Shown here: positions 47,860 to 59,496 of the stretch, in pieces | How positions within the stretch are numbered: the first letter of the stretch is position 1 | Layout of the letters: each line of letters begins with the position of its first letter | Source: an uncultured Clostridia bacterium | Lineage (GTDB): Bacteria; Bacillota; Clostridia; UMGS1810 | DNA length: 64,000 nucleotides | Assembly (NCBI GenBank): GCA_934463115.1 | Contig: CAKSIN010000010.1 | Location: 3,239 to 67,238 of the forward strand | Direction: 5' to 3' | Notes under the pieces: generated by a model | Told to the model about the DNA's origin: nothing | Databases searched by the model: none | What the model saw: the letters and a program-made list of their open reading frames with translations, nothing else | Made by a program: the position numbers and the translations under genes

Positions 47860-47936
47860 GCGCCTATAGCTCAGCAGGATAGAGCGAACGCCTCCTAAGC
47901 GTTAGGCCGGTGGTTCGAATCCACTTAGGCGCGCCA
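47860..47936 (+). tRNA. tRNA-Arg (anticodon CCU)
   Basis: Cloverleaf with acceptor GCGCCTA/TAGGCGC, anticodon loop CTCCTAA, T-loop TTCGAAT and an encoded CCA. Confidence 0.9.
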
Positions 47937-47945
47937 TCACTTTTT

Positions 47946-48021
47946 CGGGGTGTAGCGCAGTTGGTAGCGCACCAGACTGGGGGTCTGGGGGCCGTGGGTT
48001 CAAGTCCCGTCACTCCGACCA
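47946..48021 (+). tRNA. tRNA-Pro (anticodon GGG)
   Basis: Acceptor CGGGGTG/CACTCCG, anticodon stem CCAGA/TCTGG with loop CTGGGGG, T-loop TTCAAGT and an encoded CCA. Confidence 0.9.
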
Positions 48022-49566: not shown

Positions 49567-49604
49567 TAGTTTAAAAGAATCAAATTTTGTCAGGGGGAAT
49601 GGAC

Positions 49605-52094
49605 ATGAACATTAAGATCGCCCTTGCGGGTAATCCAAACTGTGGAAAGACAACGTTGTTTAATGCTCTCACAGGTTCCAATCAATTTGTCGGAAACTGG
49701 CCGGGAGTTACTGTAGAAAAAAAGGAAGGAAAGCTTAAAAAACACGACGGAGTGGTTATTACCGACCTTCCGGGTATATATTCTCTTTCTCCGTACACAC
49801 TTGAAGAAGTCGTTGCAAGAAATTATCTTGTAGATGAAAGACCGGACGCAGTGCTTAACATTGTCGACGGTACAAACCTCGAGAGAAACTTGTATCTTAC
49901 AACACAGCTTACAGAGCTTGGTATTCCGGTTGTAATTGCTATCAACATGATGGACGTTGTGCGCAAAAACGGTGATAAGATTAACATTGCCGAACTTTCG
50001 CGCGAACTCGGCTGCAAAATAGTCGAAATATCGGCACTCAAAGGCGACGGCGTTATGGAAGCAGCCGAGGCTGCAATCAAGGCTGCCGAATCGGGCAAAA
50101 CACTTCCGATGCATACATTCAGCGGAGCTGTTGAGCATGCAATTGCTCACATTGAAGAAGCTGTATTGCATGAAATGAGCGAAGAAAAGCAGAGATGGTA
50201 CGCAATAAAGATTTTTGAGCGTGACGAAAAGATTATTTCAAAGCTCGGAATTTCAGAAAACGTCCTCAGTCATATAGAAACAGATATTAAGGCTGCCGAA
50301 GATGAACTTGATGATGATGCCGAGAGCATTATCACCAACGAGAGGTACATATATATCGCTCAAATCATCAAGGGCTGCTACAAAAAGAAAAATGCCGGCA
50401 AACTGTCGACATCGGATAAGATAGATAAAGTTGTTACAAACCGCTGGCTCGGATTGCCGATATTCGCTGTTATAATGTTTTTGGTTTACTATATTTCAAT
50501 GGTAACCGTCGGCTCTATGGCAACGGATTGGGCAAATGACGGACTGTTCGGCGACGGATATCATTTGTTCGGAATCGGTTCTGCCGAGTACGGCGATGTT
50601 GCCGACGAATACGGCGAAGCCGCTCAGGTTGTAAACGGATATATAGAATATGCATCCGAAAACGGAGTTGATACCGATGATGTCAGTGCAGCACTCGACG
50701 CCGAGTCGGAAGACTTTAATGTAACTGCTGCTAAGGATGCATTGGATAAATTTGTTAAAGAAGTATCGGATATAAACAAGGCAACATATACCGTTGTTGA
50801 TGAAGAAACAATGGCAGATGAAGAAGTTACATCCACATACAAGGATTTGGTTGCCGCAGCAAAGACATATGAAGATTATGATTGCACAGATCCTGATCCG
50901 GCTGAGTACGGAATATGGGTTCCCGGTATCCCGGTTCTTGTATCCGATGCACTTGATAAAGCAAATTGTGCCGATTGGCTCGCAGGACTCATTAACGACG
51001 GTATAGTAGCCGGTGTCGGTGCTGTCCTCGGATTTGTTCCGCAGATGCTCGTATTGTTCCTGCTCCTCGCATTCCTCGAGGCTTGCGGTTACATGGCACG
51101 TATTGCATTCGTACTCGACAGAGTATTCAGAAAATTCGGTCTTTCGGGTAAATCTTTCATTCCGATGCTTATCGGAACAGGATGCGGTGTTCCCGGAATC
51201 ATGGCATCACGTACGATAGAGAATGACCGCGACCGCAAAATGACAATCATGACAACAACATTTATTCCCTGCGGTGCAAAGGTTCCCTTTATAGCAATGA
51301 TTGCCGGCGCAATATTCGGCGGTTCGGCATGGGTTGCAACTTCGGCATATTTCGTAGGAATGGCAGCTATCGTTGTATCGGGCATTATGCTCAAGAAAAC
51401 AAAAATGTTTGCGGGCGATCCGGCACCGTTCGTTATGGAGCTCCCGGCATATCACATGCCTACACTTCTCAACGTTTTGCGCAGCATGTGGGAGCGCGGA
51501 TGGTCGTTTATCAAAAAAGCCGGAACGATTATTCTTCTTTCAACCATACTCGTTTGGTTTACAAGCTACTTTGGTTTTGTAGACGGCAAGTTCATGATGC
51601 TTGAAGAAGATCAGCTCAATATGAGTATTCTTGCCACAATAGGCGGAGCAATTGCATGGATATTCAAACCCCTCGGCTGGGGCGAATGGCAGGCAGCGGT
51701 TGCGTCGATTACAGGCCTTGTTGCAAAGGAAAACATCGTTGGTACAATGGGTATTTTGTACGGCGGCGGTGACGGAAGTGTTTATGCAAATCTTGCAAAC
51801 ACATTTACGGCGGTTACAGGATATTCGTTCCTTGTATTCAACCTTCTCTGCGCACCTTGCTTTGCAGCTATCGGCGCTATCAAGCGTGAAATGAACAATG
51901 CAAAATGGACATGGTTTGCAATTGGTTATCAGTGCGGATTTGCATATGTTATTTCGCTTATTATCAACCAGCTCGGAAATGCGTTTACGGGCAATATGAA
52001 CGTTGTAGGTGTGGTTGTTGCAGTAGCGCTTATTGCCGCAATGGTATACATGCTGTTCAAGCCGTATAAAGAGGCAGACACACTTAAAATGTAA
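49605..52094 (+). CDS. feoB: Ferrous iron transporter FeoB, with a large acidic loop insertion
   Basis: G-domain motifs GNPNCGKTTLFN, DLPG and NMMD, followed by a polytopic permease. Start chosen at ATG 49605 behind AGGGGGA. Confidence 0.9.
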   Translation: MNIKIALAGNPNCGKTTLFNALTGSNQFVGNWPGVTVEKKEGKLKKHDGVVITDLPGIYSLSPYTLEEVVARNYLVDERPDAVLNIVDGTNLERNLYLTTQLTELGIPVVIAINMMDVVRKNGDKINIAELSRELGCKIVEISALKGDGVMEAAEAAIKAAESGKTLPMHTFSGAVEHAIAHIEEAVLHEMSEEKQRWYAIKIFERDEKIISKLGISENVLSHIETDIKAAEDELDDDAESIITNERYIYIAQIIKGCYKKKNAGKLSTSDKIDKVVTNRWLGLPIFAVIMFLVYYISMVTVGSMATDWANDGLFGDGYHLFGIGSAEYGDVADEYGEAAQVVNGYIEYASENGVDTDDVSAALDAESEDFNVTAAKDALDKFVKEVSDINKATYTVVDEETMADEEVTSTYKDLVAAAKTYEDYDCTDPDPAEYGIWVPGIPVLVSDALDKANCADWLAGLINDGIVAGVGAVLGFVPQMLVLFLLLAFLEACGYMARIAFVLDRVFRKFGLSGKSFIPMLIGTGCGVPGIMASRTIENDRDRKMTIMTTTFIPCGAKVPFIAMIAGAIFGGSAWVATSAYFVGMAAIVVSGIMLKKTKMFAGDPAPFVMELPAYHMPTLLNVLRSMWERGWSFIKKAGTIILLSTILVWFTSYFGFVDGKFMMLEEDQLNMSILATIGGAIAWIFKPLGWGEWQAAVASITGLVAKENIVGTMGILYGGGDGSVYANLANTFTAVTGYSFLVFNLLCAPCFAAIGAIKREMNNAKWTWFAIGYQCGFAYVISLIINQLGNAFTGNMNVVGVVVAVALIAAMVYMLFKPYKEADTLKM

Positions 52095-52132
52095 TGTAAA
52101 ATGTGAATATAATACACGGGAGGACTTGTGCT

Positions 52133-52309
52133 ATGATGACATGGATTTTGAGTAATATCGGAACAATTGTTGTATCTGCAATACTTGTGGCTGTTGTGTT
52201 GATAATAGTGAATTATCTTCGCAGAAACAAGGCGGCGGGCAAGTCCTCTTGTGGATGCAACTGTGCCGGATGTGCCATGCGCGGCAATTGTCACGGCGAA
52301 AAAAAGTAA
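52133..52309 (+). CDS. FeoB-associated Cys-rich membrane protein
   Basis: ATG 52133 follows GGGAGGA. One TM segment followed by SSCGCNCAGCAMRGNCHG. Confidence 0.75.
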   Translation: MMTWILSNIGTIVVSAILVAVVLIIVNYLRRNKAAGKSSCGCNCAGCAMRGNCHGEKK

Positions 52310-52654: not shown

Positions 52655-54736
52655 ATGAAATATGAAATTATTTACGACAAGCCCGGCAGAATCCGTCTGC
52701 GTGCCGGCCGCGGAGCATTTTCGAAAAAAACGGAGACAAGCTTGGCAGAACACCTTTTCGGAATACAGGGTGTAAAAAGTGCCGAGGTTTCGGCAGTAAA
52801 CGGAGGTATGCTTGTTTGCTACACCGGTGATTGCCGCTCCGATATTCTCTTCACTGTGTCTGAACTGAATGCCTCAACACTCAAAGAACAGGAATTGTCT
52901 CCGGCGCGGATTATTGACGAGGAGTTCAAAGACGATTTGATTTCTCTTATAAAAAAGAGAGTTTTAATGAGAATATTTGTTCCGAATTTTTTGAGTTTAC
53001 CGCTGACGGTGTTTCGCGCAGTGCCTTTTGTAAAAAAAGGTTTAAGCAGCCTTATGAATGGTAATCTGAGCGTGGATGTTCTCGATGCGGTGTCAATTTC
53101 TGCATCAATACTTACCGGTTCACCGTCCACCGCGTCGTCTGTAATGACTCTCCTGGGAGTATCGTCACTTTTGGAAAATTACACGCGGAAAAAGACAAGC
53201 ACAGCCCTGTCGGACAGCCTTGCACTGAATATCGAAAAGGTTTGGCGTATAGGAGAAAACGGGGAGGAATGTATTCCGCTTGCTGAGGTGAAGGACGGCG
53301 ATGTGCTGCGTGTACGCAGCGGAAGCATGATACCGGCAGACGGTGTTGTAGTATCGGGAAATGCCGGTGTAAACGAAGCGTCAATGACCGGAGAATCATT
53401 TTTACAGTTAAAATCCGACGGCATGACTGTGTATGCCGGAACAGTGGTTGAAGAAGGATGCATTGATATCCGTTCCTCCGGATGTGCCGATGACAGCAGA
53501 ATACGCGGTATCGTCGAAATGATAGAAAGCTCCGAACAGCTGAAATCCGGAACACAGACACGCGCCGAGAGCTTTGCCGACGCGCTTGTGCCGTTCAGCC
53601 TTTTGGGGTGTGCGGTTACATATCTGTTAACGCGAAATGTGACAAAAGCCATGTCGGTTCTCATGGTCGATTATTCGTGCGCCGTTAAGCTGTCAACACC
53701 GATTTGCGTTATTTCGGCAATGCGCGAGGCAACCAATTATGATATAATGGTAAAAGGCGGCCGCTTCCTTGAAAATTATGCTTTTGCCGATACGATTGTT
53801 TTTGATAAAACCGGTACGCTCACAGTGTCGTGCCCGAATCTTGCAAAAATTGTAACGTTCGGCGAATACGGAGAAGACGATATATTGCGCATAGCTGCAT
53901 GCCTTGAGGAACATTTTCCGCACAGCGTGGCAAAGGCGATAGTTCACGCTGCCGAGGTCAAAGGACTGGAACACCGCGAGGAACACGCGGAAGTCGAGTA
54001 TATTGTGGCGCACGGAATATCGTCGGTTTTAAACGGCAAAAGAGCGCTGATAGGCAGCGCGCATTTTATTTTTGATGATGAAAAAATCCCCCTCGGCGAC
54101 GAGCAGAAAAAGGATATAGAACGCCTCGGCGAAAGGTATTCCATGGTCTACCTTGCAATAGGCGGAAGCCTGTGCGGCATCTTGTGTATTGAGGATCCTG
54201 TGCGTCCGGATGCTGCGGATACAATCGATAAACTCCGAAACAAAGGATTCAGCGATATCCTTATGATAACCGGCGACGGCGAGAGCACGGCAATGAGCGT
54301 GTGTAAAGAACTCGGTATAGGCAGATTCTATGCGCGTGTTCTCCCGGAGGATAAGCTGAATATAGTAAATGATATCAAATCCGGCGGACACAAAGTTGTT
54401 ATGGTCGGCGACGGAATAAACGATTCTCCGGCGCTTGCGGCCGCCGATGTGTCTGTTGCCATGAGGGACGCGTCGGATATTGCCCGCGAAACGGCGGATA
54501 TCACGCTTCTGTCGTCCGATTTGGAAAGACTTGTTGTGCTGCGCGAACTGAGCAAAAAGCTTTTCGACAGGATTCATGCCAATTATCGGTTTATAACGCT
54601 TTTCAACAGTGCGCTGCTCGCACTCGGAATCGGCGGGATAATATCTCCGGTGACAGGTGCGCTTTTGCACAATCTGTCCACGACATGCGTGTGCATAAAC
54701 GGAATGAAACCGTTCCTCGGCGAGGGTGATTTGTAA
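52655..54736 (+). CDS. Heavy-metal-type (P1B) P-type ATPase with an SCA transmembrane motif and a Cys-less N-terminal HMA-like domain
   Basis: Contains TGES, DKTGTLT and GDGINDSPAL. The TM metal motif reads YSCAVKLSTP where CPC is usual. 693 aa. Confidence 0.85.
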   Translation: MKYEIIYDKPGRIRLRAGRGAFSKKTETSLAEHLFGIQGVKSAEVSAVNGGMLVCYTGDCRSDILFTVSELNASTLKEQELSPARIIDEEFKDDLISLIKKRVLMRIFVPNFLSLPLTVFRAVPFVKKGLSSLMNGNLSVDVLDAVSISASILTGSPSTASSVMTLLGVSSLLENYTRKKTSTALSDSLALNIEKVWRIGENGEECIPLAEVKDGDVLRVRSGSMIPADGVVVSGNAGVNEASMTGESFLQLKSDGMTVYAGTVVEEGCIDIRSSGCADDSRIRGIVEMIESSEQLKSGTQTRAESFADALVPFSLLGCAVTYLLTRNVTKAMSVLMVDYSCAVKLSTPICVISAMREATNYDIMVKGGRFLENYAFADTIVFDKTGTLTVSCPNLAKIVTFGEYGEDDILRIAACLEEHFPHSVAKAIVHAAEVKGLEHREEHAEVEYIVAHGISSVLNGKRALIGSAHFIFDDEKIPLGDEQKKDIERLGERYSMVYLAIGGSLCGILCIEDPVRPDAADTIDKLRNKGFSDILMITGDGESTAMSVCKELGIGRFYARVLPEDKLNIVNDIKSGGHKVVMVGDGINDSPALAAADVSVAMRDASDIARETADITLLSSDLERLVVLRELSKKLFDRIHANYRFITLFNSALLALGIGGIISPVTGALLHNLSTTCVCINGMKPFLGEGDL

Positions 54737-54848: not shown

Positions 54849-55523
54849 ATGGAAAGAGAGTTACAAAAGACGATACCGAACCAGCTAATGGTTACAACAA
54901 TACAGAACCCCGAGTTCGAAAAGACATTTAATAATTTTCAGGAAATAATGATGATGTACAATTGTGCAGTCCGTGAGGTAAAAACCAAATTTGAGGTTCT
55001 CAATGACGAACTTGCGGTAAATAACAACCGAAATCCGATAGAGGTTATTAAATCACGGCTGAAAAAACCGCAGAGCATTTATCAGAAACTTATGCGTAAA
55101 GGTTTGCCCGTGAGCACGGAATCAATGTTCGAAAACCTTAACGATGTTGCCGGAATACGCGTTGTGTGCACATTTGTGGACGATATATACGAAATCGCCC
55201 GAATGCTTGCGCGCCAGGATGATATCACCGTTGTTGAGGTTAAGGACTATATAAAGAATCCGAAAGAAAACGGATATCGGAGTTACCACATGATAGTTGA
55301 GGTTCCGGTTTTCTTTTCGAAACGCAAGATGAATATGAAAGTTGAGGTTCAGCTGCGTACAATAGCAATGGATTTTTGGGCGAGCCTGGAGCATACCATG
55401 AAGTATAAAAAGGACATTCAGAATTCCGAAATAATATCGGATGAACTTAAGCATTGTGCCGATCTGATAGCGGAAACAGACCTCAAAATGCAGGCAATTA
55501 ACAATAAAATTCAAAGAAACTGA
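54849..55523 (+). CDS. Small alarmone synthetase (RelP/RelQ-type GTP pyrophosphokinase)
   Basis: 224 aa with RelA/SpoT synthetase motifs (DVAGIRVVCTF, GYRSYHMIV, EVQLRTIAMDFWASLEH). Confidence 0.85.
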   Translation: MERELQKTIPNQLMVTTIQNPEFEKTFNNFQEIMMMYNCAVREVKTKFEVLNDELAVNNNRNPIEVIKSRLKKPQSIYQKLMRKGLPVSTESMFENLNDVAGIRVVCTFVDDIYEIARMLARQDDITVVEVKDYIKNPKENGYRSYHMIVEVPVFFSKRKMNMKVEVQLRTIAMDFWASLEHTMKYKKDIQNSEIISDELKHCADLIAETDLKMQAINNKIQRN

Positions 55524-55624: not shown

Positions 55625-55652
55625 TTGACTTTTGGCAAAAAACATTTATAAT
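55625..55652 (+). promoter_or_regulatory. Sigma-A-like promoter of the SCIFF locus
   Basis: TTGACT (55625-55630), 16-nt spacer, TATAAT (55647-55652). Confidence 0.55.
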
Positions 55653-55694
55653 GTATAATATATGCGTATTTTATTTAAAGGAGAATATAAGATT

Positions 55695-55958
55695 ATGAAC
55701 AGAATCCAGACACTTGATACAAGAAACTTGACGGAGTGTGAGGGCGGATGCGGCGAATGTCAGACATCGTGTCAGTCTGCATGCAAAACATCATGCGGTG
55801 TTGCAAACCAGTCGTGCGAAAACACATCGAGAATAGTTACCCTGAACACAAGAAACTTAACAGAGTGTGAGGGCGGATGCGGCGAATGTCAGACATCGTG
55901 TCAGTCTGCATGCAAAACATCATGCGGCGTTGCAAATCAGCCGTGTGAAAACAACTGA
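55695..55958 (+). CDS. Tandem-duplicated SCIFF (six-cysteine) ranthipeptide precursor: two complete units fused in one 87-aa ORF
   Basis: AAAGGAGA RBS. The two 43-aa repeats each carry TRNLTECEGGCGECQTSCQSACKTSCGVANQxCEN. The 129-bp DNA period starts at 55719 and 55848. The cognate radical SAM maturase follows. Confidence 0.85.
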   Translation: MNRIQTLDTRNLTECEGGCGECQTSCQSACKTSCGVANQSCENTSRIVTLNTRNLTECEGGCGECQTSCQSACKTSCGVANQPCENN

Positions 55959-55976: not shown

Positions 55977-56010
55977 TCCGACCGCCGACGTGCGGTCGGA
56001 AATTTTTTAT
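55977..56010 (+). terminator. Hairpin plus T-tract between precursor and maturase (probable partial terminator or attenuator)
   Basis: Stem TCCGACCGC/GCGGTCGGA with loop CGACGT, then AAATTTTTTAT. Confidence 0.6.
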
Positions 56011-56024
56011 GAGGATTTTGAAAT

Positions 56025-57398: not shown

Positions 57399-57433
57399 GA
57401 TTGTCTTAAATAAATATGTCAATCAATAAATGA

Positions 57434-57470
57434 CGGCGGCAAAATAAATCATATTTTGCCGCCGCTGTTT
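57434..57470 (+). terminator. Terminator-like hairpin after the maturase gene
   Basis: 12-bp stem CGGCGGCAAAAT/ATTTTGCCGCCG with a 7-nt loop, followed by CTGTTT. Confidence 0.6.
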
Positions 57471-57750: not shown

Positions 57751-59418
57751 TTATTTATCATTTATTACGCCGAGTCCCGCGCATGAGATGATATCTTTTC
57801 CGAAATCGCCCTGCATAAGTTTTACAAATTCTTCTGTTTTCGGATTCGGTTCGTCGCGTATCACTGCATAATAATTTGTGGTGTATGGGTATTTTCCGCT
57901 GCCGATGCTTTCGTCACTCGGTGCAATACCGTCTATGGAGAGGAGTTTCAAATCTACATCGCCGAGCACCTGCGGCACTGTCTGATAGTAATAGTACAGG
58001 CTGTAACCGATTGCCTTGGAGTCGGTGTGCGTTGCGTCGTATGATTCAACATCGGTCAGAATGCTCGCCATTATATACGATGTTCTTTCCTTTGAAATTT
58101 CATCGCTTATTGATTTTCCGTCCAAGATGAATTTTTCCATTTGCGCATGGCTTCCGCTGTCGTTGTTTCTGCAATATGCGGCAAGCGCCACATCATCACC
58201 GCCAAGCTCTTTCCAGTTTTTAATGCCGTTTTCGGTGTATATTTTTTGTATCTGTTCGGTTGTAATGTTATTAACCTTGTTGTCCTTTCCGACAAAGAAT
58301 ACAAGCGCCTCGTTGGCTATCGGGATAAATTTCAGTTTTACATTCTTTTCATCGGCATATTTTGTAATTTCTTCGCTCGGATCGGGGACAAATATAACGT
58401 CGGCTTTTCCGTCAATCAGATTTTTGTACGAATTTGAAGTTTTCGAATGTGCCTTTGGCATAGTTTCAAGGTTGTGAGCATTTTTGTAATACACATCATA
58501 GATATTCTGTGTGATTGCATAGGTTGAGGTTGAGCCGTCGAGCCGCGGAATATCAACATTCGGAGCGTCGGAGCGCAGTATTGCCGGAGCATTATTTGCA
58601 AAGAAATCGCGTATTATGTAATACATATACGTTGCACATTCGTCTCTCGTAAGTCCGTTTTGCGGTGCAAAGCAATAGTATTCTATAAATTCCTCGCCGG
58701 TATCTTCGGAATCCTCGTAATCCTCTATGAGCATATACCCGTTGGCTTTCATAGCCGCGTAGGATTCTTTTGCATAATCGGACACAAGGTCGCTGTCCGT
58801 ATAGTGTTCAAAATCAAATGCGCCCTCGTTTTTTATATATCCCATATCGCTAAGCATGCGGCACATCATGGATATAAACTGTTCGCGCGTCACAGCGTTA
58901 TTCGGGTTAAACAAACGGTCTTTTTTAAACACACCGCGTTCGCAAAGTGCGTTTACATATGGGGTAAACCAACTGTCTGACGGCGTATCTTCGAAATATG
59001 TCACTCCGTCTTTAGGCTCAACCGAAAAGAGTCTTGAAAACACGGCTGCCGCTTCGGCGCGTGTCAACACCCGATTGGGGGCAAATGTTCCGTCACCGTT
59101 TCCGACCATTATTTTTCTGGCGCTCATTTCTGCGGCAAACATGCCTTCGTATTCCGGGATGTCGGTAAAATCTGTTGTTGTAACCTTAAGCGGGATGATT
59201 TTTTCCGTATTCGGCGCATAGGCATAGACCTCGCCGTCATACAGCGTGCCGGAAAAAGGAATTATCTCGCCTGTCAGCGAATCACTTGCAACCGTACAGA
59301 TGTTGCCGCTGTAGTCGTTGTCATCGTCCGTATCGCAGTATAAGACATCCGATGACGCAAATGCATTTGCCGAAATGCTAAGCAGTATCGCGGCAGTTAA
59401 AATGGTTTTTTTGAACAT
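57751..59418 (-). CDS. Secreted SLH-domain protein with a C-terminal PstS-like periplasmic-binding domain
   Basis: Start at ATG 59418 behind GGAGGG. Signal peptide (MFKKTILTAAILLSISANAFA), two SLH repeats (FTDIP..., FEDTP...) and a PBP type-2 C-terminal half. Confidence 0.75.
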   Translation of the reverse strand: MFKKTILTAAILLSISANAFASSDVLYCDTDDDNDYSGNICTVASDSLTGEIIPFSGTLYDGEVYAYAPNTEKIIPLKVTTTDFTDIPEYEGMFAAEMSARKIMVGNGDGTFAPNRVLTRAEAAAVFSRLFSVEPKDGVTYFEDTPSDSWFTPYVNALCERGVFKKDRLFNPNNAVTREQFISMMCRMLSDMGYIKNEGAFDFEHYTDSDLVSDYAKESYAAMKANGYMLIEDYEDSEDTGEEFIEYYCFAPQNGLTRDECATYMYYIIRDFFANNAPAILRSDAPNVDIPRLDGSTSTYAITQNIYDVYYKNAHNLETMPKAHSKTSNSYKNLIDGKADVIFVPDPSEEITKYADEKNVKLKFIPIANEALVFFVGKDNKVNNITTEQIQKIYTENGIKNWKELGGDDVALAAYCRNNDSGSHAQMEKFILDGKSISDEISKERTSYIMASILTDVESYDATHTDSKAIGYSLYYYYQTVPQVLGDVDLKLLSIDGIAPSDESIGSGKYPYTTNYYAVIRDEPNPKTEEFVKLMQGDFGKDIISCAGLGVINDK

Positions 59419-59496
59419 TTGAATCCCTCCGTTTTTATTTGGTGTGTTCATTGTATCATACGCAAACGGAGAAATCAATATCTGTAAAATAAATGT

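Follow-up and report, generated by a model that had tools for sequence, protein, structure and literature searches.

A two-unit SCIFF precursor gene in an uncultured Clostridia bacterium and its counterparts in other genomes

Can a SCIFF precursor be doubled within a single gene, and what would its maturase then make of two cores in one chain? SCIFF and the maturase ScfB make up a RiPP system that is among the most widespread in Clostridia, and each precursor described is a free-standing peptide of about 45 aa that has a single leader and a single core. In contrast, one gene in the stretch of DNA analyzed here (64 kb from an uncultured Clostridia bacterium, referred to below as the window) encodes two modules in 87 aa, with the second leader lying inside the chain. 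A conserved two-module precursor offers a natural test of a leader acting internally, of a maturase acting on two cores, and of leader removal.

The ORF begins with an ATG at 55695 and ends with a stop codon at 55956-55958 (Table 1), and its 87-aa product reads MNRIQTLDTRNLTECEGGCGECQTSCQSACKTSCGVANQSCEN and then TSRIVTLNTRNLTECEGGCGECQTSCQSACKTSCGVANQPCENN. An earlier note on this DNA, made from the letters alone, had described it as two full SCIFF units of 43 aa each; the two full units stand, but unit 1 has 43 aa and unit 2 has 44 aa. Their assignment to SCIFF is borne out by the NCBIfam model TIGR03973, which matches the protein twice (127 bits in total), and by Pfam PF13165, which matches it over two stretches (127 bits). 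When isolated, each half alone exceeds the TIGR03973 cut-off of 50 bits (69.0 bits for unit 1 and 70.7 bits for unit 2), in an alignment that spans model positions 2 to 43 of 43 and includes the leader part. Both units keep the leader motif R-I-x-T-L-x-T-R-x-L...GG and the invariant six-Cys core; all six core cysteines (GGCGECQTSCQSACKTSC...C-E) are present in the translation of each, along with one additional leader cysteine per unit (C15 and C58). At the DNA level, Tandem Repeats Finder reports a repeat at 55719-55953 with a period of 129 bp, 1.8 copies, 94% matches, and zero indels. In the 64-kb window, the core motif GGNTGYGGNGARTGYCARAC has only two occurrences, and this ORF contains both; thus, the window holds no separate scfA gene. 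A PDB search with the precursor returned only chance matches to cathepsins (E of about 0.4 to 0.7). The product departs from the single-leader, single-core format of about 45 residues and is a variant architecture made from SCIFF modules, not a canonical member of the family.

Table 1. Features of the two-unit SCIFF locus (positions in the window)
Feature	Position	Strand	Basis
scfA-scfA, two-unit SCIFF precursor gene	55695-55958	+	ORF list; two TIGR03973/PF13165 matches
Unit 1, residues 1-43	55695-55823	+	TIGR03973 match as isolated half
Unit 1 leader, residues 1-18, MNRIQTLDTRNLTECEGG	55695-55748	+	
Unit 1 core, residues 19-43, CGECQTSCQSACKTSCGVANQSCEN	55749-55823	+	
Unit 2, residues 44-87, without its own start codon	55824-55955	+	TIGR03973 match as isolated half
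Unit 2 internal leader, residues 44-61, TSRIVTLNTRNLTECEGG	55824-55877	+	
Unit 2 core, residues 62-87	55878-55955	+	
Conversion-tract candidate, 21 codons (14-34), 63 nt	55734-55796	+	DNA-identical to 55863-55925
Promoter-like site, sigma-70-type TTGACT-16 nt-TATAAT	55625-55652	+	Consensus scan, 11/12 matches
RBS AAGGAG for two-unit scfA	55679-55684	+	Direct sequence reading
Terminator-like hairpin and U-tract between scfA and scfB	55977-56009	+	Folding
RBS GAGGA for scfB	56011-56015	+	
scfB, radical SAM/SPASM thioether-forming SCIFF maturase, 457 aa	56025-57398	+	TIGR03974 match

No in-frame ATG, GTG, or TTG is found at the junction between the two units of the window ORF, and the unit 2 leader is without an in-frame start codon in 48 of the 49 double loci listed, which indicates that both units are made as one chain. 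The homologues all begin at the equivalent Met, within M-x-R-I-x-T-L. The promoter-like site, a pattern match only, lies about 40 nt 5' of the ATG and is overlapped by a second match at 55632-55659. Downstream, the stem-loop at 55977-56000 consists of a 9-bp stem with seven G-C pairs and a 6-nt loop, followed by AAUUUUUUAU, and folds with an MFE of -19.9 kcal/mol (z = -2.55). In a crude search, a hairpin with a T-run was found 3' of the SCIFF stop codon at 27 of the 33 single loci and 27 of the 49 double loci listed. The hairpin between scfA and scfB is a general SCIFF feature and nothing peculiar to the double; it is probably a partial terminator that would set a high ratio of precursor to enzyme.

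The order first read from the sequence, a hairpin and then a radical SAM/SPASM maturase with the motif CNLNCTYC, was recovered in full. The maturase gene starts 67 nt past the scfA-scfA stop codon, and its product matches TIGR03974 with 766.1 bits (cut-off of 425); the score for the “not_ScfB” exception family NF040492 is 554.9 bits, below its cut-off of 855. The protein has Radical_SAM, Fer4_12, and SPASM domains, with CNLNCTYC as its CxxxCxxC motif. It is a close homologue of CteB, to which it aligns over its full length (residues 1 to 450; PDB 5WGG/5WHY, E = 1.3e-170), and the alignment takes in the N-terminal, leader-binding region, leader binding itself being predicted. Among 80 related loci listed, scfB lies directly 3' of the SCIFF gene in all but one (L051), and at the loci listed the length of ScfB is constant at about 454 to 457 aa whether the locus is single or double. 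The locus thus has the same leader motif, six-Cys core, and adjacent ScfB as the ScfA-ScfB systems CteA/CteB of Clostridium thermocellum and Tte1186a/Tte1186, and a two-gene cassette without protease or exporter and an intergenic hairpin are likewise common to those systems and the double. Profile searches of the genes next to the window's scfA-scfA locus found no protease or exporter gene, in agreement with the earlier reading, and this is the norm for SCIFF rather than a peculiarity of the double. No conserved neighbor besides scfB was found at the related loci among the window's neighbors tested.

The two-unit architecture is not peculiar to the source genome. A protein search across about 5.8 billion clusters yielded 6,972 SCIFF matches, the best 13 of which (P0001 to P0013; 79 to 108 aa, 70 to 81% identity, coverage of at least 98%) are all two-unit proteins, and about six more matches are fragments of doubles. 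Doubles are rare, at about 0.3% of SCIFF protein clusters. A genome scan covering one genome per species for 185,579 species gave at least 48 species-level genomes (L001 to L048) with both units in one ORF, at a spacing of 42 to 48 aa. These are mostly rumen and gut MAGs labeled as Clostridia, Oscillospiraceae, Lachnospiraceae, or Christensenellales. Doubles also occur in the cultured Filifactor villosus CCUG 46385 and in a Filifactor alocis MAG, and the P0009 cluster contains a 92-aa Parvimonas parva protein, found on 310 contigs, that NCBI names “six-cysteine peptide SCIFF.” Since F. villosus and P. parva are cultured carriers, the native product can be sought directly. Among 241 million metagenome DNA records, a pattern of two cores 126 to 147 nt apart (each core pattern beginning with TGCGG and matching about 85% of units) was found on 21 contigs, and all 20 of those checked are single-ORF doubles. 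The corresponding three-core pattern had no match in the same 241 million records, for which the 21 two-core matches serve as the control, and no three-unit SCIFF protein was found in the search of about 5.8 billion clusters. The latter result is informative because a three-unit protein would outscore all of the doubles found. The exact 87-aa protein of the window is absent from a collection of 15 billion sequences; the nearest genomes listed have 93% identity for the precursor and about 81% for ScfB.

In the searchable literature, we found only the single peptide and no description of a two-unit SCIFF, although a passing mention in the founding papers is possible, and we found nothing joining SCIFF and Filifactor. 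The earlier note had held that its claim would be weakened if fused doubles proved to be common and already described. This has come about in part, since doubles are already in the databases, where they carry the plain label “SCIFF”; however, they are rare, and we found no account of them in the searchable literature. Public database records from dozens of species contain the two-unit form without comment, so that the gene is less exceptional than had been supposed, and it is still useful.

The annotation of doubles is faulty in several ways. NCBI entries of 59 to 64 aa named “SCIFF, partial” start inside unit 1, and gene callers yield 47-aa products whose start, MCENT..., is the tail of unit 1. 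Among the protein matches, P0014, P0016, P0020, and P0021 are examples of doubles mishandled in this way or similarly. None of the doubles from the group A genomes (86 to 93% identical to that of the window) was found at full length in the 5.8-billion-cluster database. As doubles are called partial or truncated, counts of SCIFF precursors from genome mining miss or misreport them.

A short tandem repeat can be misassembled, and the double might on that account be an artefact or an accident, that is, an assembly duplication, two neighboring genes joined by a sequencing error, or a neutral duplication of recent date that is decaying. Three related loci could be read in its favor: the units of L049 are in different frames, and L052 and L058 have a single unit. 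However, 13 of the 43 codons differ between the two copies in the window, 8 of them through synonymous changes, and a codon-by-codon comparison reproduced the count first made from codon 9 on, where 6 codons differ, 5 synonymously and 1 as Ser/Pro. In addition, the in-frame double recurs in about 70 independent assemblies, and units up to 28% apart in DNA have intact cores. The leaders also carry signatures of position, described below, that are common to several species, and thus the duplication is old. The artefact reading, which had been argued against from the substitutions in the window, is effectively refuted.

Comparison of unit 1 with unit 2 over the 26 core codons, pooled across 64 doubles, gives 272.5 synonymous and 13.5 nonsynonymous differences. 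The dN/dS ratio is 0.012 for the core, versus 0.23 for the 14 leader codons before it. In each double, nearly all of the differences between its two cores are synonymous. Both cores are under strong purifying selection, as had been suggested from six substitutions in the window, and the evidence now goes far beyond those; the two-unit architecture is conserved and selectively maintained.

The high DNA identity of the cores, which had likewise been put down to purifying selection, is explained by it in part but mainly by gene conversion, as the third-position distances indicate. In group A (19 genomes), the third-position core distance is 0.15 within a genome, compared with 0.49 (unit 1 to unit 1), 0.47 (unit 2 to unit 2), and 0.48 (unit 1 to unit 2) between genomes. 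Across 66 doubles, the core distance is 0.056 within and 0.175 between genomes, and the nearest neighbor of a core is its own partner unit in 72 of 132 cases. For the first eight leader codons, the nearest neighbor is the unit at the same position in another genome in 116 of 132 cases, and the residue x of R-I-x-T-L is Q, N, K, or T in unit 1 and V, K, R, or F in unit 2 (66 doubles). The cores thus retain no trace of positional orthology, as is characteristic of concerted evolution. Codon-usage bias was considered as a source of the likeness of cores within a genome and was rejected, since in the same ORFs the codons at the N-terminal end of the leader cluster by position rather than by genome. 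These patterns indicate that, after the old duplication, gene conversion acted only on the core and the last part of the leader, and the stretch of the window that is identical between the units (Table 1) is consistent with a recent conversion tract. With position-specific leaders and homogenized cores, the doubles make a clean small case of intragenic concerted evolution. The signature at residue x also suggests that the maturase does not treat the two leaders alike; processing order or affinity, for example, might differ between them.

As to origin, the double had been described as a fusion of two precursors. None of the 80 loci listed has a pair of intact scfA genes as separate neighbors (the units of L049 are frame-shifted), so that a duplication within the gene, in frame and covering nearly all of the ORF, is likelier than a gene fusion. 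The doubles fall into one large clade and a Filifactor/Tissierellia clade in a neighbor-joining tree built from 68 sequences of ScfB; the sampling favors relatives of the query, and the tree calls for caution. The single-unit loci L052 and L058 are nested inside the large clade. L058, which has the upstream ORF of its sister L027, consists of the unit 1 leader joined to the unit 2 tail of the L027 double. Recombination between the two repeats, or else a collapse during assembly, could account for the single unit at both loci.

How ScfB might treat such a chain can be considered in light of the published work on single SCIFF peptides. The SCIFF maturases Tte1186 and CteB make one thioether, which runs from the fourth cysteine (Cys32) to Thr37 in vitro and from Cys32 to the C-gamma of Thr34 in vivo (PMC8326336, PMC8172795, PMC10177961). 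This single thioether, with the fourth Cys as donor and a Thr as acceptor, has been demonstrated in CteA and Tte1186a (PMC8326336, PMC10177961), and although SCIFF has six cysteines, only one thioether is made in vitro (PMC8326336). In the window precursor, the equivalents of the donor and acceptor pair C32/T34 of CteA are C30/T32 in unit 1 and C73/T75 in unit 2, and the equivalent of Thr37 is Gly in both units. A role in quorum sensing has been suggested for SCIFF, for which no protease or exporter is known (PMC8326336).

We propose that nearly all of the scfA ORF, minus start and stop codons, was long ago duplicated in tandem and in frame, which would have produced a single 87-aa chain with the order leader 1, core 1, leader 2, core 2. 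The N-terminal peptide-recognition domain of ScfB would bind each leader in turn, the internal one included, and the enzyme would put the same Cys-to-Thr (C-gamma) thioether into each core, at the predicted positions C30-T32 and C73-T75. The doubly cross-linked chain would then be 4 Da below the unmodified peptide. Intragenic gene conversion holds the cores near-identical, and the leader codons at the start of each unit, about eight in number, evolve separately. From the sequences compared here, we consider it likely that both cores are modified by ScfB. The wider reading, of a selectively maintained two-module SCIFF precursor in which each leader is recognized and each core is cross-linked by ScfB, also seems to us a probable one.

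The single thioether made by SCIFF maturases in vitro (PMC8326336) could also be taken to mean that one unit is the true substrate and that the other is a segment for extended recognition, a chaperone, or a decoy, which is not cross-linked. The systematic difference between units at residue x would fit such a division of labor, as it hints at leaders that are not equivalent. However, the near-invariance of both cores, despite many synonymous differences between them, would be surprising if one of them were an unmodified spacer, and the full family model fits one half as well as the other, so that we regard a single modified unit as quite improbable.

The position of the cross-link may vary among doubles. 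The fourth core Cys is replaced by Ser in both units of the double at 1999-2262 of L028 (identical with P0001; AGC codons) and also in P0005, P0006, P0008, P0009, P0011, and P0012; in the Parvimonas-type proteins, P0009 among them, the fifth Cys is Ser as well. As the thioether donor is reported to be the fourth Cys, the cross-link position assumed above may not be general. Either another Cys is the donor in those lineages or the cross-link is dispensable.

There are known systems in which one enzyme acts repeatedly on one chain. In freyrasin (PapA/PapB), with its six CX3D motifs, a single radical SAM/SPASM enzyme forms several thioethers per chain (PMC8326336, PMC10177961). PapA has one leader and repeats short motifs within one core, whereas the window double repeats the whole precursor, the leader too, and the window ScfB scores 282 bits against the PapB family model NF047865, short of the cut-off of 340. 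In plesiocin (the graspetide PsnA2/PsnB), all four tandem core motifs are modified by one enzyme and a single multidomain product is kept. Plesiocin differs from the window double in its ATP-grasp chemistry, single leader, and four repeats, in place of ScfB, two leaders, and two repeats.

The repeat could also serve dosage. A protease whose gene lies elsewhere would then cut the modified chain, with the GG before each core as one possible site, and release two near-identical SCIFF peptides, which would double the yield per translation. Multicore RiPP precursors that are cut into several products have a precedent in the cyanobactins, whose precursors, such as PatE, hold several product cassettes in one gene with one shared leader; the cassettes are flanked by protease recognition sequences, and dedicated proteases are encoded in the cluster. 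The window double has in common with PatE that there are several cassettes per gene, but neither conserved protease sites around the cores nor a cluster protease was found at the window locus. Each unit is a complete leader plus core, as a precursor meant for cutting might be, and the GG before both cores goes along with a weak resemblance to the double-glycine leader family PF10439 (E = 3.4e-4, under the gathering score). The holding of the cores identical by gene conversion would also be expected if two identical products were wanted. However, cuts at GG alone would give unequal products, namely, core 1 with leader 2 and core 2 by itself. The junction between the units is not conserved across doubles (CEN-TS, CES-TG, CEA-KP, CESVSRPG, and CENTH), and no conserved cleavage motif was found there among the doubles compared. 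Furthermore, no protease or exporter gene lies near the locus, where scfB is the only conserved one of the neighbors tested, and the variable copy number to be expected of a dosage device is contradicted by the finding of two-unit forms only, with no triple. A cut polyprotein is less likely than not, but it is a rival to be taken seriously.

With a variable junction that has no cleavage motif, no associated protease gene, and a copy number of two without triples, we lean towards a chain that would remain intact at least through modification and that may be bivalent. A stronger version, in which the doubly cross-linked SCIFF is never cut and is obligately bivalent, with copy number held at exactly two and the cores kept alike by gene conversion because two equivalent modules are needed by the molecule or by a ScfB dimer acting on it, strikes us as doubtful, and we give it little credence. 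If the bivalent reading were true, the SCIFF leader would work internally and stay in the mature product, and this would bear on the role of SCIFF, which is an open question in a 2021 review (PMC8326336).

A few doubles are irregular. In L049 (6001-6303 of CP091729.1, a Clostridiales MAG described as “complete”), the two units are in different frames; unit 1 reads on into ...CESTRIFLHLTQ..., and unit 2 is called apart as the 47-aa P0021. The frame shift reflects either a long-read indel error or a pseudogenized double, and the close relatives L082, L095, and L096 have the in-frame intact form. P0010 (79 aa) has a unit 1 with an internal deletion of QSACKTSC, probably through slippage between repeated TSC motifs, and this is the only clearly degenerate unit observed.

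The other neighbors of the SCIFF locus in the window are of varied function. Upstream are genes encoding FeoB (49587-52094), a FeoB-associated Cys-rich membrane protein (52103-52309), a heavy-metal P-type ATPase (52655-54736), and a small RelA/SpoT-type alarmone synthetase (54849-55523; YjbM-like, with a score below the cut-off). The P-type ATPase and the alarmone synthetase, which were the two tested, were not found next to SCIFF genes in other genomes. Pyruvate kinase and enolase are also among the neighbors, as is a convergent gene on the minus strand (57751-59478) encoding a 575-aa protein with SLH and PBP_like_2 domains. An Rfam scan of the whole window gave no family at gathering score beyond two tRNA genes, tRNA-Arg(CCT) and tRNA-Pro(GGG), which adjoin at 47860-48021. 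Between the end of scfB and the convergent gene lies a strong 14-bp palindromic hairpin (57433-57465) that may be a bidirectional terminator.
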